Assembly: GCA_023135785.1 (NCBI GenBank)
Contig: JAGLSL010000008.1
Location: forward strand, 1-48,222
Direction of reading: 5' to 3'
Length of the DNA: 48,222 bases
Source: a bacterium
Lineage (GTDB): Bacteria > CAIJMQ01
The translations under genes were made by a program, and so were the position numbers. Under the pieces are notes generated by a model that was not told where the DNA came from, ran no database searches, and saw only the letters and a program-made list of their open reading frames with translations. Every line of letters begins with the position of its first letter. Position 1 is the stretch's first letter. This document shows positions 2,833 through 11,763 of this stretch, piece after piece.

Positions 2833-5517
2833 TTATTTTATAATAACCCCATACTCAGACAATCTCTTATAAGCTTCTTTTAATTTTTTCTTAACCGTTT
2901 CAATGACTTCATATTTATTTGCTATTTCTTTTTGCTTGGCTAAATCAAATTTTCCAGTAGATGTTATGGGTATCTTTATATTTTTTACATCTTCTTCTAT
3001 GTGAGTTTTCTTTAATCTTTTGTTTCCTTGCCCCTGTATAAAATCTGGAAGATGGTTATTCAAAAGGTACAACAAATATTTATAGTCCAACTCTTTTTTG
3101 TGTTCTTCTTTAATTAAAAGCAATCCAGAATGACAAGTCATATTAAACTTACCCTTTCTATAAAAAACCATACCAGGATAAGAGCCATCTATAGACCAAG
3201 TTAAACCTTCAGCATCCCAATCATAATGATCTATTTTTCCTATCTCTCCATTATTTAGTGTTTGTGCAGAATAAACCGGATATTCACCTTGATGGTTGTT
3301 GATATACTCTTTGGTGTATTTTGCCTTGCCTAATTCTATATCAAATAATTCAGTGATCTTTTTATCTTTGAATTTTACCTTGCTGATTTCATCTTCGATT
3401 TTCTTAATCTTTTTTCTTGAAGAATTAATTTCTTTTTCTAAATCAGATAAAAACTCATTATAAGAACAAATGCCTAGTGTTTTCTTTTCTTCTTTTATTT
3501 TCAGATTAATAAGCTCTTTATCTTTCCAGAAATTCTCAATAATCCAGTATTTACTTTTATCAAAAACATTAAAATCTATTAGCTTGCATCTTGGATCATC
3601 AACTTTAAAAAAAGTTTTGCTTCCTTTAAATTGATTATAAAGATTCTTGGCTTGTTCTAAATCGTTATCTTCGATTTCAAACCTATCTGCGTCCAAGTTT
3701 TCCCCTATGCTCGAAACTAGATAACAAAAGATAGGGAAGTCCTGAATATCAACATTATTCTGTTTTTTCTCAACACATAAAATATAGGTTTTTTTATTTG
3801 TATTAAAAAAGGTTTTCATTGGTAAAGAAATTATAGCATTGATAAAACACTCTTTCTTAATTTCTTCCCTTAGTTTCTTATTAGCAAAATTATCCATAAT
3901 TCCATTAGGTATAACTACAAAAGCCCGCCCGTCTTTTCTTAAATTATTTAGTATCCATTTTAAAGCAAGCCCCTCAACACCAACACCTGAACACTTATAT
4001 TCTGATTCTAAACCTTCTTCTTTTATTTCGTTTCTTAAACTTCTTGAACCTTTTTTTACATAGGGTGGATTAGAAAGGATAAGGTCAGGTTTATCTCTTT
4101 CCTGTTTGAATTTTACTTTTAAAGTCCCCAGATTACTTTCGGAAAGTAGCTTGAATGTTCCATTAAAATATTCAGCATAATTCTTGGTTAAATTAGGTGC
4201 TTTTTGTACAATATCTGATAAATATATTAACATATTAGCTTTGGCCAATATTATAGTTCTATGTTCATCGTCGTCACTACCTTTATCATAACCAAGAAAT
4301 TTAACCCTCTTTGATGAGAAATTCGATCGAAACTGGCTCTTGAGTTTGGGATAAGTTTGTAAAGGCTCTAAAATAAAACCACCTACACCACAAAAAGGAT
4401 CACATATAAACTCTGCTGAATTTACATCGGCCATTTCTATAATAGCCCGCACAACTTTTCTAGGAGTAAAAAATTGCCCCAAACGGCTCTTGTCTTGGCT
4501 TTGCTTTAAAAAAGTCTCAAATAACTTTGTCTTAAATTCTTTCTTTATATTTCTTAGGGACTGGAATTCTGCGTATTTCTGTAACGAACTCTTGAATAGG
4601 TTGGCTTGACTGTAAACTGGCTTTCCTTTACCGTCAACAAAGATTGTTCCGTTTATTATTGTAGTCCCATCGTCTGCAATGGGAAACAGTTTTATTATCT
4701 CTACCCTTGAATTTCTTGCGTAAAACTCCAAAACCTCTTTGCTTGTTTTTTTATTTTTATACATATCCATCAAACTTTGAAAGTCATATGGAGTTTTTAG
4801 GACGTTGAGATCGCTTAAAAACTTAAAAATAAACAATTCGACAACATTATACAGACATTTTGTAGGATCTTTTCCTGTATTGACGTAAATATCCTGCCAA
4901 ACACTTTTAGCTAGATTTAATGGGTCAACTTCTTTTGTTTTCCTGAAAGTAGAGTTTTGTTCAGATATTTGATCTAATATCTTTTGAATTAAATCATAAG
5001 TCTCTTTAGTTGTTTCTTCTAATTTTTCATAGTTTAGCTGTTTTTGCTCCTTAATGAAAAAATTCGTCTGAACTTTTTGCTTATCTTCACTTAAAATAAA
5101 AGAATAACTCCTTTTTTCGTCTGTAGTTCTGTCTCTGTAATCATTCTTTGCATCATCTTGTCTTGGATTAATCCAGTAGGTTACAATTCCATCTGTAATA
5201 ACCCCAATACTTGCATCAAGTAGCTGGCACACATCATTACATTGTTCTATTGATTCTTTCTTTTGTTTGTCTGTTTGAAAGCCACTAGGTTTCTTCCACT
5301 CTATCACAAGTAAAACTTTTGGCTTTTTTTTGTCTCTCCTATCAACAAGAAGTCCGTCAGCCTTCCTCTTTTCATATTTACCATAGCTTCTTTTCTCAAT
5401 TATTCCACTATCCTTATATTGTTTTACTGTTGTGGAATGTAGAGGGAAGAACTCATAATCAACTATCAAAATACCCTTTTTGTCCAGCTCCCTTGAGATT
5501 TGTTCTTCACTAGCCAC
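2833..5517 (-). CDS. single-chain Type IIG restriction-modification enzyme (PD-ExK nuclease + gamma-class N6-adenine methyltransferase + HsdS-like target recognition domain)
   Basis: 894 aa. N-terminal ADGLLVD...VLLVIEWKKP fits D...ExK. FFTPRKVV and DPFCGVGGF form the AdoMet motif, and LILSNPPYVKKG is catalytic motif IV. A coiled-coil linker is followed by a C-terminal ~190 aa (ELGKAKYTKEY...EYPVYSAQTLNNGEIG...WSIDGSYPGMVFY) that resembles one Type I S-subunit TRD. The gene is visibly more AT-rich than its neighbours. Confidence 0.8.
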   Translation of the reverse strand: MASEEQISRELDKKGILIVDYEFFPLHSTTVKQYKDSGIIEKRSYGKYEKRKADGLLVDRRDKKKPKVLLVIEWKKPSGFQTDKQKKESIEQCNDVCQLLDASIGVITDGIVTYWINPRQDDAKNDYRDRTTDEKRSYSFILSEDKQKVQTNFFIKEQKQLNYEKLEETTKETYDLIQKILDQISEQNSTFRKTKEVDPLNLAKSVWQDIYVNTGKDPTKCLYNVVELFIFKFLSDLNVLKTPYDFQSLMDMYKNKKTSKEVLEFYARNSRVEIIKLFPIADDGTTIINGTIFVDGKGKPVYSQANLFKSSLQKYAEFQSLRNIKKEFKTKLFETFLKQSQDKSRLGQFFTPRKVVRAIIEMADVNSAEFICDPFCGVGGFILEPLQTYPKLKSQFRSNFSSKRVKFLGYDKGSDDDEHRTIILAKANMLIYLSDIVQKAPNLTKNYAEYFNGTFKLLSESNLGTLKVKFKQERDKPDLILSNPPYVKKGSRSLRNEIKEEGLESEYKCSGVGVEGLALKWILNNLRKDGRAFVVIPNGIMDNFANKKLREEIKKECFINAIISLPMKTFFNTNKKTYILCVEKKQNNVDIQDFPIFCYLVSSIGENLDADRFEIEDNDLEQAKNLYNQFKGSKTFFKVDDPRCKLIDFNVFDKSKYWIIENFWKDKELINLKIKEEKKTLGICSYNEFLSDLEKEINSSRKKIKKIEDEISKVKFKDKKITELFDIELGKAKYTKEYINNHQGEYPVYSAQTLNNGEIGKIDHYDWDAEGLTWSIDGSYPGMVFYRKGKFNMTCHSGLLLIKEEHKKELDYKYLLYLLNNHLPDFIQGQGNKRLKKTHIEEDVKNIKIPITSTGKFDLAKQKEIANKYEVIETVKKKLKEAYKRLSEYGVIIK

Positions 5518-6121: not shown

Positions 6122-6155
6122 TAATAACAACACTGATATATCAGTGTTGTTATTA
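6122..6155. repeat. perfect 34-bp palindrome directly after tRNA-Gly
   Basis: taataacaacactgata|tatcagtgttgttatta is perfectly self-complementary. It could be a processing or termination hairpin, but there is no U-tract. Confidence 0.8.
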
Positions 6156-6404
6156 CCCCGAGAGTATCGGGAAAATGTCTGTTGGAGATTTTTTCGATGG
6201 TTTACGATACGGGGTTTGCAGTGGGATATCTGCGTGATAATCACCCCGAGAGTATCGGAAAATTTCCACGAGGAAATTTCTGTAAAAATGTCTGTTGGAG
6301 ATTTTTTCGATGGTTTACGATACGGGGTTTGCAGTGGGATATCTGTGTGAAAATTACCCCGCAGAGTATCCCGAAGGTTTTCGGGATGGCTTACGATACG
6401 GGGT
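6155..6404 (+). repeat. tandem array of three ACCCCG(C)AGAGTATCG...TTACGATACGGGGT palindromic units (6155-6215, 6243-6328, 6356-6404)
   Basis: The arms are conserved and the interiors differ in length (61, 86 and 49 bp). The inter-unit spacer TTGCAGTGGGATATCTG(C/T)GTGA is also repeated. Unit 2 is nearly identical to the unit at 10340-10426. Confidence 0.85.
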
Positions 6405-9009: not shown

Positions 9010-9399
9010 ATGGAAAATAAAGTTAATACTACAGGAAGAAGAAAAGAAGCAGTTGCAAAAGTTTTTCTTTCCTTGGGAACAGGCAATATCGTCATAAACG
9101 GCAAAAGATTGGACGAATATTTCCCACTATCGAACCTTCAGGCAAGAGTTCTTGCCCCACTTGAAGTTACTGAAAATCTAAAGCTATATGATGTAAAAAT
9201 TAAGGTGCTCGGTGGAGGTATTTCAGGACAAGCCGGTGCAGCTGCGCTTGGTATTGCCCGCGCCCTAGTTGAAACAGACGAAAAATTTAGAGCTACGCTT
9301 AAGAAAAAAGGCTTATTAAAAAGAGATCCTCGAATGGTAGAGAGAAAAAAATATGGCCGAAGAAAAGCTCGTAAAAGCCCCCAATACTCCAAACGATAA
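9010..9399 (+). CDS. rpsI: 30S ribosomal protein S9
   Basis: 129 aa. GRRKEAVA...GGG.SGQAGA...GIARAL, ending in RRKARKSPQYSKR. Confidence 0.95.
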   Translation: MENKVNTTGRRKEAVAKVFLSLGTGNIVINGKRLDEYFPLSNLQARVLAPLEVTENLKLYDVKIKVLGGGISGQAGAAALGIARALVETDEKFRATLKKKGLLKRDPRMVERKKYGRRKARKSPQYSKR

Positions 9400-9673
9400 A
9401 GGGGAAATTGTTGTTGTTAGTGTTCTCGGTAATGAAATTAGATTAAGAACACAAGCCGGTTCGGATTATATTCATAAGTTAACCGAAGATATTGAAAACA
9501 GAATAAAATGCTGTATGAGCGATTCGGGCATTATGTCTTCCCTGAAAGCGGTGATTTTAGTATGCCTTGACCTTGCGGACGAATTGGAAAAGCAAAAGAA
9601 ACAGCATTCCAAAAAAGACAAGTCTTGTGAAGAAAGAATAGATAAACTAATCAATAAAATTTCCGCAGTTTAA
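9353..9673 (+). CDS. zapA: cell division protein ZapA
   Basis: 106 aa. V.VLGNEIRLRT....DYIHKLTEDIENRI....S....KAVILVCLDLADEL fits the ZapA pattern. The only in-frame ATG overlaps rpsI by 47 nt. Confidence 0.6.
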   Translation: MAEEKLVKAPNTPNDKGEIVVVSVLGNEIRLRTQAGSDYIHKLTEDIENRIKCCMSDSGIMSSLKAVILVCLDLADELEKQKKQHSKKDKSCEERIDKLINKISAV

Positions 9674-9798
9674 TTCTAACGCATAGAAATGCGTTAGAAT
9701 TACCCCGCAGAGTATCGAAAAAATATCGAAGACCCAGGGTATTATTAACAATGGGGCGAGAGATTTTTTTGATGTTTTACGATACGGGGTTTCGTTGA
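9672..9798 (+). repeat. 127-bp direct repeat, copy A (30-bp palindrome AATTCTAACGCAtagaaaTGCGTTAGAATT plus an ACCCCG...CGGGGT unit at 9702-9790)
   Basis: Base-for-base identical to 10193-10319. Begins inside the zapA stop codon. Confidence 0.9.
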
Positions 9799-9818
9799 AA
9801 TAGAAATACGTTCCGTTT

Positions 9819-9973
9819 ACCCCGTTTAGAGATTTTACGTCGAATAGAACCCTTTACTTAAATAGAAGTATAAAAGGTAATTACGGAAGAAAATTTTTAC
9901 GAATAAGTTACACTCCGACAACGATACGCCGGAGTTATCCCCGCCTTGCCGTCGAGACAGGTCTAACAGGGGT
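9819..9973 (+). repeat. degenerate ACCCCGTTTAGAGAT...GTCTAACAGGGGT element
   Basis: Arms related to the 19881 and 22676 elements. An internal hairpin (CTCCGacaacgatacgcCGGAG) precedes the right arm. The right arm abuts the -35 box of the 6S-like RNA promoter. Confidence 0.5.
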
Positions 9974-10000
9974 TTACAATCCAATTTTGCGTGTTATAAT
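9973..10000 (+). promoter_or_regulatory. strong sigma-70-type promoter: TTTACA-N16-TGT-TATAAT (extended -10)
   Basis: TTTACA at 9973-9978, TG at 9992-9993, TATAAT at 9995-10000. A G at 10008 lies 7-8 nt downstream. Confidence 0.6.
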
Positions 10001-10007
10001 AAGTCAA

Positions 10008-10187
10008 GGCTCTGGGATATACGTGATGGAATAAATGGAATCTTGAGCCAAATAGTTAAAAAGGGAATTCTACTTTGGGTAAAGCGTGTACGTCCCGATG
10101 TAATGTCGGGAAAACACAAACTATTCAAGGGAATACCCACTTTGTAAAGCAGCTTTAAGATTCCTGTCCCACACGGTATCTTGGGGC
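10008..10187 (+). ncRNA. ssrS: candidate 6S RNA
   Basis: 180 nt starting 7-8 nt after a near-consensus promoter. The 5' end GCUCUGGGAUAUACGUG pairs with the 3' end CACACGGUAUCUUGGGGC, followed by UUUUU. A second helix forms between GGAAUCUU and AAGAUUCC. The centre is largely unpaired, and the apical hairpin is GUGU-acg-UCCCGAuguaaugUCGGGA-aa-ACAC. UGAGCC on the 5' side and UUCAAGGG on the 3' side resemble elements I recall in E. coli 6S RNA. Location downstream of zapA matches the E. coli zapA-ssrS arrangement. Confidence 0.55.
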
Positions 10188-10192
10188 TTTTT

Positions 10193-10319
10193 AATTCTAA
10201 CGCATAGAAATGCGTTAGAATTACCCCGCAGAGTATCGAAAAAATATCGAAGACCCAGGGTATTATTAACAATGGGGCGAGAGATTTTTTTGATGTTTTA
10301 CGATACGGGGTTTCGTTGA
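10193..10319 (+). repeat. 127-bp direct repeat, copy B
   Basis: Identical to 9672-9798. Followed at 10321-10339 by half of the TGCGTTAGAATT palindrome and then another unit. Confidence 0.9.
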
Positions 10320-10339
10320 TATAGAAATGCGTTAGAATT

Positions 10340-10426
10340 ACCCCGCAGAGTATCGGAAAATTTCCACGAGGAAATTTCTGTAAAAATGTCTGTTGGAGAT
10401 TTTTTCGATAGTTTACGATACGGGGT
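10340..10426 (+). repeat. ACCCCGCAGAGTATCGG...TTTACGATACGGGGT unit (near-copy of 6243-6328)
   Basis: Same interior as unit 2 of the array after tRNA-Gly, including the hairpin GAAATTTCCacgaGGAAATTTC, with 1-2 differences. Confidence 0.85.
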
Positions 10427-10536
10427 GATTAAATTCTTCATTCCTTTAAATACAATTTCAAAAATCAAATTATAAAGTGTAGAATAGTACGCTTACTAAT
10501 GAGAGCACTTTATACTTAACATTTCATACGTGAGCT

Positions 10537-10681
10537 GTCATTCCTGCATGTAGTAAGCAGGAATCCAGTCTTTCGTCATGAATAGATTCGTCCCCAAGTG
10601 TTTCTATTGGGGATAAAAATCCCCGATTACTGCATTCGGGGGCAGGCTATTCGGGAATGACAAAAGAGGGGCGGGAATGAC
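10537..10681. repeat. GTCATTCC...GGGAATGAC palindromic element with internal hairpins
   Basis: Left end GTCATTCCTGCatgtagtaaGCAGGAATCC. Right end CGGGAATGACA occurs twice (10653-10661 and 10673-10681). Internal hairpin TCCCCAagtgtttctaTTGGGGA. Confidence 0.7.
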
Positions 10682-10746
10682 ACACAATGTAAAGTACTTT
10701 CTGTCCTCCTTAGTAATATCAATAGTATTAACATATAAAAAAATAT

Positions 10747-11763
10747 ATGCTGCCAATTATTGGAATAACGATGGGCGACCCTGCCGGAATAGGCGGAGAA
10801 ATTATCATAAAATCTCTCAAACAAAAAGCCCTGCGCTCAAAGTATTGTCCCGTTATTATCGGTGATTTTTCCTATTTGAAACTCCTCATAAAAAAACTTT
10901 CTAGTCCCTTAAAAATAACCAGTATAAATAAAATTAAAGACAGAAAATCCTTACCCATTGACGCAGTCCCCATAATTGACCTGAAAAATTTGGAAAATAA
11001 AAAAATAAAGTTTGGAATATGTGACACTGGTTGCGGGAAAGCTTCTTACGAATATATAGCCAAAGCCATAGAATTAGCTTCTTACGGATTTATTGACGCG
11101 ATTGTTACAGCCCCCATAAACAAAGAAAGTTTTCATAAAGCACATATACCTTATACCGGACATACGGAAATGTTGGCTAAACTTACAAAAACGAAAAATT
11201 TCGCAATGATGCTCGTAGGCGGAAAATTAAGAGTCGTATTAGTGACAAGACATATCCCCATTAAAAATGTTTCAAAAAAATTAACTGAAGAAAAAGTTTT
11301 CACAGCTATAAAACTTGCCCACAATGCAGGTAAATATTTCAATATCACTAAACCAATAATAGGCATCTGTGGACTTAATCCTCATAGCGGCGAAGGTGGA
11401 ACTATAGGAGATGAAGAGATTAAAATAATTATACCCGCAATCAAGAAATCCAAAAAAACGGGAATAAACGCGATGGGACCATATGCTTCGGATACTATTT
11501 TTTATAAAGCTTTAAAACCTGCCCGCCAAAGTTTGTCAGGCGGGGGAAACTATGATTTTGTTGTTGCAATGTTCCACGACCAAGGACTTATACCTTTAAA
11601 AGCGCTTTATTTTGACGAAGGGGTAAACGTTACCTTGGGATTGCCTTTTATCCGAACCTCGCCCGACCACGGTACGGCTTATGATATTGCAGGAAAAGGC
11701 ATCGCAAATCCTAAAAGTATGCAGGAAGCGATAAAATTAGCTGTAAAAATGAGCCGTATTTAA
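10747..11763 (+). CDS. pdxA: 4-hydroxythreonine-4-phosphate dehydrogenase
   Basis: 338 aa. GITMGDPAGIGGEII, GHTEMLA, MFHDQGLIPLK and LPFIRTSPDHGTAYDIAGKG motifs. Confidence 0.9.
   Translation: MLPIIGITMGDPAGIGGEIIIKSLKQKALRSKYCPVIIGDFSYLKLLIKKLSSPLKITSINKIKDRKSLPIDAVPIIDLKNLENKKIKFGICDTGCGKASYEYIAKAIELASYGFIDAIVTAPINKESFHKAHIPYTGHTEMLAKLTKTKNFAMMLVGGKLRVVLVTRHIPIKNVSKKLTEEKVFTAIKLAHNAGKYFNITKPIIGICGLNPHSGEGGTIGDEEIKIIIPAIKKSKKTGINAMGPYASDTIFYKALKPARQSLSGGGNYDFVVAMFHDQGLIPLKALYFDEGVNVTLGLPFIRTSPDHGTAYDIAGKGIANPKSMQEAIKLAVKMSRI
11518..11547 (+). repeat. GC-rich mini-palindrome CCTGCCCGCCaaagtttgtcaGGCGGGGGA, in frame inside pdxA
   Basis: Encodes PARQSLSGGG in a loop that, from my memory of E. 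coli PdxA, is about 9 aa longer here (between DT.F and AM.HDQGL). Confidence 0.6.

Follow-up and report, generated by a model that had tools for sequence, protein, structure and literature searches.

A 6S RNA gene with its own promoter between zapA and pdxA in an uncultured Omnitrophota bacterium

Introduction

6S RNA is among the most widespread bacterial small RNAs. In E. coli its gene, ssrS, sits in the zapA-ssrS-ygfA (fau) locus, and the mature RNA is processed from longer P1/P2 precursors. The Omnitrophota are an uncultured, largely ultra-small phylum, and a search of the available literature library for 6S RNA in Omnitrophica/Omnitrophota found no paper. The stretch of DNA analysed here (hereafter the window, 48,222 nucleotides) contains, downstream of a zapA gene, a segment that a first reading made from the sequence alone had described as a structured RNA with a promoter, probably 6S RNA. 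The question raised by this locus is whether the segment is an independent 6S RNA gene, a part of a neighbouring messenger, a small coding sequence or an RNA of similar fold with another function.

The evidence taken together makes it nearly certain that positions 10006-10191 of the forward strand are an ssrS gene, with its own sigma-70-type promoter, a primary transcript some 184 nt long, the rod-like fold of the family and, by homology, a function in the sequestration of RNA polymerase holoenzyme. The coordinates of all features are collected in Table 1.

Table 1. Features of the zapA-6S region (positions in the window)
Feature	Position	Strand	Evidence
zapA, 106 aa	9353..9673	+	Pfam PF05164 ZapA, E = 6e-14, 52.6 bits
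156-nt direct repeat, upstream copy (hairpin and ACCCCG...CGGGGT element)	9669..9824	+	Repeat search
-35 hexamer TTTACA	9973..9978	+	Promoter scan, 11/12; same in L001, TTGACA in L002
Extended -10 TGTTATAAT (TG-T-TATAAT), with TATAAT at 9995-10000	9992..10000	+	Promoter scan; TATAAT invariant in three lineages
6S RNA (ssrS) gene	10006..10191	+	RF00013; z = -6.31; 184-nt RNA contig in a relative, equivalent to 10008-10191
Closing stem, 5' arm	10007..10024	+	Rfam alignment and MFE fold
Internal helix, 5' arm GGAAUCUUGAGCC; predicted product-RNA template	10037..10049	+	Rfam alignment and MFE fold
Central bubble, 5' strand AAAUAGUUAAAAA, 13 nt	10050..10062	+	Unpaired in Rfam consensus
Apical hairpin UCCCGAU-GUAAU-GUCGGGA	10093..10111	+	Rfam alignment and MFE fold; one compensatory change in L002
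Central bubble, 3' strand ACUUUGUAAAGCA, 13 nt	10139..10151	+	Unpaired in Rfam consensus
Internal helix, 3' arm GCUUUAAGAUUCC	10152..10164	+	Rfam alignment and MFE fold
Closing stem, 3' arm	10173..10189	+	Rfam alignment, MFE fold and relatives
U-run (five T's) after the closing stem	10188..10192	+	Sequence; RNA contig ends at 10191
156-nt direct repeat, downstream copy	10190..10345	+	Repeat search
Perfect 14-bp hairpin immediately 3' of the 6S gene, forming the first part of the downstream copy	10192..10223	+	Repeat search

The locus and its host

The position next to zapA, which the sequence-only reading had given as part of its argument, is borne out by the Pfam match of the upstream frame; this is the classic, though not a defining, location of 6S genes. 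On the 5' side of zapA are found rpsI, rplM (from position in the list of open reading frames) and clpP, and on the 3' side pdxA (10747-11763), followed by ispH on the opposite strand. A single ZapA frame starts with ATG, and it shares 47 nt (9353-9399) with the 3' end of rpsI; the closest relative shows this arrangement too. The best relative of PdxA (90% identical) belongs to 'Candidatus Omnitrophota bacterium Modern_marine.mb.319' (locus L001) and the next (75% identical) to a metagenome-assembled genome labelled Ratteibacteria (locus L002). By these PdxA relatives the host belongs to the uncultured Omnitrophota. The window's own sequence is found in DNA runs from cold-seep metagenomes.

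Family match and fold of the RNA

Scanning the whole 48-kb window with Rfam 15 at gathering thresholds gave four matches, three tRNAs and the 6S/SsrS family RF00013. The latter lies at 10006-10191 (+) with 95.6 bits and E = 5.5e-18, about twice the gathering score of the family (46.4), and it is full-length (model positions 1-187 of 187, not truncated). A permissive local scan of 9600-10700 returned the same match (E = 1.3e-19), and this is the only 6S copy within the window. Membership of the 6S family is thus observed at the levels of both sequence and structure, and the gene is a standard 6S RNA of an already known kind, easily detected by the public covariance model. The size of 180 nt proposed at first is slightly short, the actual length being 184-186 nt.

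The predicted fold is much more stable than expected from composition: its minimum free energy is -67.7 kcal/mol, against -42.5 +/- 4 in 200 dinucleotide shuffles (none as good as the RNA itself), and the G+C content of the RNA is 41% compared with 37% for the window. The architecture described from the sequence recurs both in the Rfam alignment and in the minimum free energy (MFE) fold, which agree on the pairing of the two ends over about 18 bp, on a second, internal helix, and on an apical hairpin joined to the central bubble by an interrupted stem. The open middle, also foreseen, is unpaired on both strands of the Rfam consensus; RNAfold partly closes it with four weak A-U/G-U pairs, a helix that is absent from L002.

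Conservation in relatives and coding potential

Both L001 and L002 carry an RF00013 match (96.9 and 87.4 bits, respectively), which is flanked by zapA and pdxA as in the window. The RNA of the window differs from that of L001 at 4 of 186 positions (98% identity), while that of L002 is about 80% identical. A metagenome contig (L168) reproduces the L001 sequence exactly, 6S gene included. When the 16-mer TTCCTGTCCCACACGG, taken from the 3' part of the RNA, which is invariant, was compared with metagenome contigs, 120 stretches were recovered, nearly all of them by chance, and the 6S gene was present only in L168. In four further loci chosen through PdxA and labelled Omnitrophota or Margulisiibacteriota (L003, L006, L007 and L012) no 6S match was found within reach.

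Across the three distinct sequences, which are too shallow a set for a covariation statistic, around 12 one-sided changes preserve pairs (G-U becoming A-U or G-C). Eight of these fall in the closing stem; one further change is compensatory (C-G to U-A in the apical stem of L002). None of the closing-stem pairs is broken in this set, whose changes are consistent with the fold; L002 has lost several pairs in the apical part and in the bubble.

The initial statement that no open reading frame explains the region has to be corrected in one respect, since frames do exist there: a program lists one of 34 aa on the plus strand (10043-10147) and one of 92 aa on the minus strand (9994-10272). Its substance stands, because in L002 indels of 1 nt shift these frames, stops appear and no frame runs through the RNA, so that the conservation is not of the protein-coding kind.

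Promoter, transcript and 3' end

The near-consensus promoter noticed upstream is real, and it recurs in the two Omnitrophota lineages of L001 and L002. It consists of TTTACA-N16-TATAAT with the TG of an extended -10 element at 9992-9993, and with 11 of 12 matches it is the top site within 9300-10900. With 6 promoter-like sites, compared with 5.1 expected from shuffles, this interval shows no excess over chance, and the case for the promoter therefore rests on its conservation in relatives and on the start of an RNA contig 8 nt downstream. L001 has TTTACA-N16-TATAAT and L002 has TTGACA-N16-TATAAT, both at an unchanged distance from the RNA.

That RNA contig comes from a groundwater metatranscriptome (X15), where a single contig of 184 nt aligns with window positions 10008-10191 with four differences, which are those separating the window from L001. 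With respect to L001 it shows 0 differences and spans positions 3574-3757. Its first nucleotide, 8 nt past the -10 box, agrees with the transcription start near 10008 that had been read from the DNA, and its length answers the expectation of a transcript of about 180 nt, here in a relative that is 98% identical. Its word depth is 2423, compared with 4.84 for zapA, 3.81 for pdxA and about 8 for rpsI, that is, some 300- to 600-fold higher. Neither the promoter nor the downstream hairpin has coverage, and there are gaps on both sides of the 184 nt. These data derive from a close relative of the window's population and from the assembler contigs of one run, where contig ends and word depth give only rough estimates; the RNA is missing from two further runs of that study. 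The pattern is that expected for an abundant, discrete RNA which starts from the predicted promoter and ends in the U-run.

A run of T's after the paired ends, also pointed out at first, is present, and a scan of the region found no canonical intrinsic terminator. The 3' end could be formed either by the closing stem and the U-run acting as a terminator or by trimming back from the hairpin that follows.

Alternative explanations

It might be thought that the segment acts in cis within a neighbouring mRNA, as the 3' UTR or terminator of zapA or as the leader of pdxA, given that zapA, the RNA and pdxA share the same strand with the RNA in between, and that E. coli 6S RNA is itself cut from a longer transcript. 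Such a reading is very improbable: the RNA has its own conserved promoter 8 nt before the start of the RNA contig, this contig is confined to 184 nt with gaps flanking it and has a depth about 500 times that of zapA and pdxA, and the start of pdxA lies 555 nt downstream of the RNA, beyond two repeat inserts. A small protein, from either of the frames mentioned above, has an almost negligible probability. Both frames exist mechanically, and the one on the minus strand spans the entire RNA without a stop both in the window and in L001, but the indels and stops of L002 leave no continuous frame, the 92-aa frame extends into a repeat element, and the covariance-model match together with the abundant plus-strand RNA accounts for the conservation.

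A further idea is that a 6S-like fold could serve another purpose, such as binding of core polymerase, as Ms1 does, or serve in processing or termination as a module linked to the flanking repeats. The arrangement of the locus lends it something, as repeats bracket the gene and a hairpin with an ACCCCG...CGGGGT element follows it directly on the 3' side in all three lineages. Nevertheless, relatives lack the upstream copy of the repeat, which makes the bracket recent and external to the gene; the match to the 6S model is strong and full-length, with conserved motifs flanking the bubble; and Ms1 belongs to an actinobacterial family whose fold is not that of 6S RNA (PMC9130861). Another job for this RNA is accordingly a highly improbable reading, and a 6S RNA expressed from its own promoter is by far the preferred one.

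Predicted mechanism

The 6S cycle, which consists of the sequestration of holoenzyme and its release by product-RNA (pRNA) synthesis, has been described in other bacteria (PMC3299989, PMC3753640, PMC8876501). By analogy with those systems we infer RNA polymerase binding, a pRNA start site, a structural rearrangement and a physiological role for the RNA of the window. Its transcript begins at about G10008 and stops in the U-run at about 10191. The bubble would mimic an open promoter and, as the homology suggests, occupy the active-site cleft of the RNA polymerase holoenzyme with the housekeeping sigma factor, so that holoenzyme would be sequestered as growth slows. On nutrient upshift, with rising NTPs, the polymerase would copy the 5' strand of the bubble into a short pRNA; this synthesis would unzip the internal helix, the freed 3' strand would refold and the enzyme would be released.

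Positions 10036-10053 are the predicted pRNA template. The template base is an A at the column that the Rfam alignment places opposite the E. coli pRNA start, so that initiation here has probably moved by one to four nucleotides. The consensus alignment and the literature on initiating nucleotides (PMC3753640) make U10053 or C10049 the more likely positions; the predicted pRNA would be 5'-AUUUGGCUCAAGAU... from U10053, with A as initiating nucleotide, or 5'-GGCUCAAGAUUCC... from C10049, with G. RNAs of 14-20 nt would escape capture in X15, which is a random-primed library with assembled contigs. When the pRNA-paired segment was blocked in a constrained fold, a new hairpin, UAAAG-CAG-CUUUA, appeared in the 3' strand at 10145-10157, resembling the rearrangements described for the 6S RNAs of E. 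coli and B. subtilis.

Relation to known 6S RNAs

The RNA shares with E. coli 6S the full-length match to the model, a size of about 185 nt, the closing stem, central bubble and apical stem, the UGAGCC motif at the 5' edge of the bubble, the place directly downstream of zapA and an abundance that is high in comparison with the neighbouring mRNAs. It differs from it in apparently being the primary transcript of a single promoter, with transcription starting at the mature 5' end, and in that the downstream gene is pdxA instead of ygfA/fau. With B. subtilis 6S-1 (bsrA) it has in common the family and the predicted cycle, in which pRNA synthesis would open the helix adjoining the bubble and a new hairpin would form in the 3' strand (PMC8876501, PMC3923129). 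B. subtilis has two 6S paralogues, of which 6S-1 needs a G-initiated pRNA (PMC3753640), whereas the 48-kb window contains one copy.

Beyond correct annotation the gene is of little importance. Its value lies in documenting, in Omnitrophota, a 6S RNA with its own promoter and with a very abundant transcript in situ, seen in a near-identical relative. Besides, with two inserts here and neither of them in close relatives, the locus is a clear-cut natural setting in which to compare the activity of palindromic repeats in this clade.

Flanking repeats and inserts

The two copies of the direct repeat are 96% identical over 156 nt, and their first 130 nt are identical. Each opens with a perfect 14-bp hairpin, TAATTCTAACGCAT-AGAA-ATGCGTTAGAATTA, followed by a palindromic unit with ACCCCG...CGGGGT arms. 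The upstream copy is located inside an insert of 291 nt (9675-9965), where L001, L168 and contigs from groundwater and biofilm DNA runs (X6 and X8) have 28 nt; for this reason the copy is regarded as a recent insertion of this lineage and not as a part of the 6S gene. The same insertion explains why the spacer between zapA and the 6S gene measures 333 nt in the window and 70 nt in relatives. At their left junctions both copies have the microhomology TTTAAT, in one case at the stop of zapA and in the other at the 6S U-run. The rest of the upstream insert (9825-9972), when compared with the downstream array, scored 22, not above its shuffles (18.6 +/- 3.5), and the permissive scan of 9600-10700 assigned the flanking repeats to no Rfam family (E of 0.1-0.9 for the best matches, whose scores were well under the gathering thresholds).

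Palindromic units of the kind just described also make up an array behind tRNA-Gly, at 6155-6404. A perfect TAAT...ATTA hairpin and then an ACCCCG...CGGGGT unit are observed immediately 3' of the 6S gene in the window (10192-10311), in L001 (3757-3902) and in L002 (3805-3901), and the same arrangement follows tRNA-Gly in the window (6122-6215). The stems of these hairpins are wholly different in sequence in each case. The elements are similar to REP/REPIN sequences in being short palindromic units, placed between genes and after them, in forming tandem arrays and in varying in copy number among close relatives, and they are unlike them in their variable interiors and in the perfect TAAT...ATTA hairpin of unrelated sequence that precedes the first unit. 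They do not belong to the 6S RNA.

Hairpin and unit may be a functional 3'-end module, or the units may belong to a repeat family that targets such hairpins. A more specific proposal, which we consider unlikely, is that the module found after 6S, tRNA-Gly and zapA forms or protects the 3' ends of stable RNAs without a canonical U-tract terminator, and that it is possibly mobile and, in the window's lineage, was duplicated onto the 5' flank of the 6S gene. If this were true, recombination between the direct repeats (130 nt identical, 156 nt at 96%) could lead to deletion or amplification of the 6S gene. An apparent joint from 10354 back to 9353 in the cold-seep run X1 was considered as a rearrangement and rejected; it probably reflects a 3.4-kb contig that starts in the similar repeat array of tRNA-Gly.

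Another insert confined to this lineage, about 220 nt in length (10495-10715), lies in the gap between the 6S gene and pdxA; it is absent from L001, L168 and the X6/X8 contigs and carries the inverted motifs GTCATTCC...GGAATGAC. In run X1 its word depth is up to 344, compared with about 6-10 in the flanks, which indicates a multi-copy repeat in that community. Past the repeat units, the window and L001 realign from 10426 (L001 3902) at GATT(A/C)AATT(C/T)TTCATTCCTTTAAATACAATTTCAAAAATCAAATTATAAAGTGTAGAATAGTAC, and the realigned stretch includes a promoter-like site, TTCAAA-N17-TAGAAT (10457-10485), that is possibly the promoter of pdxA.
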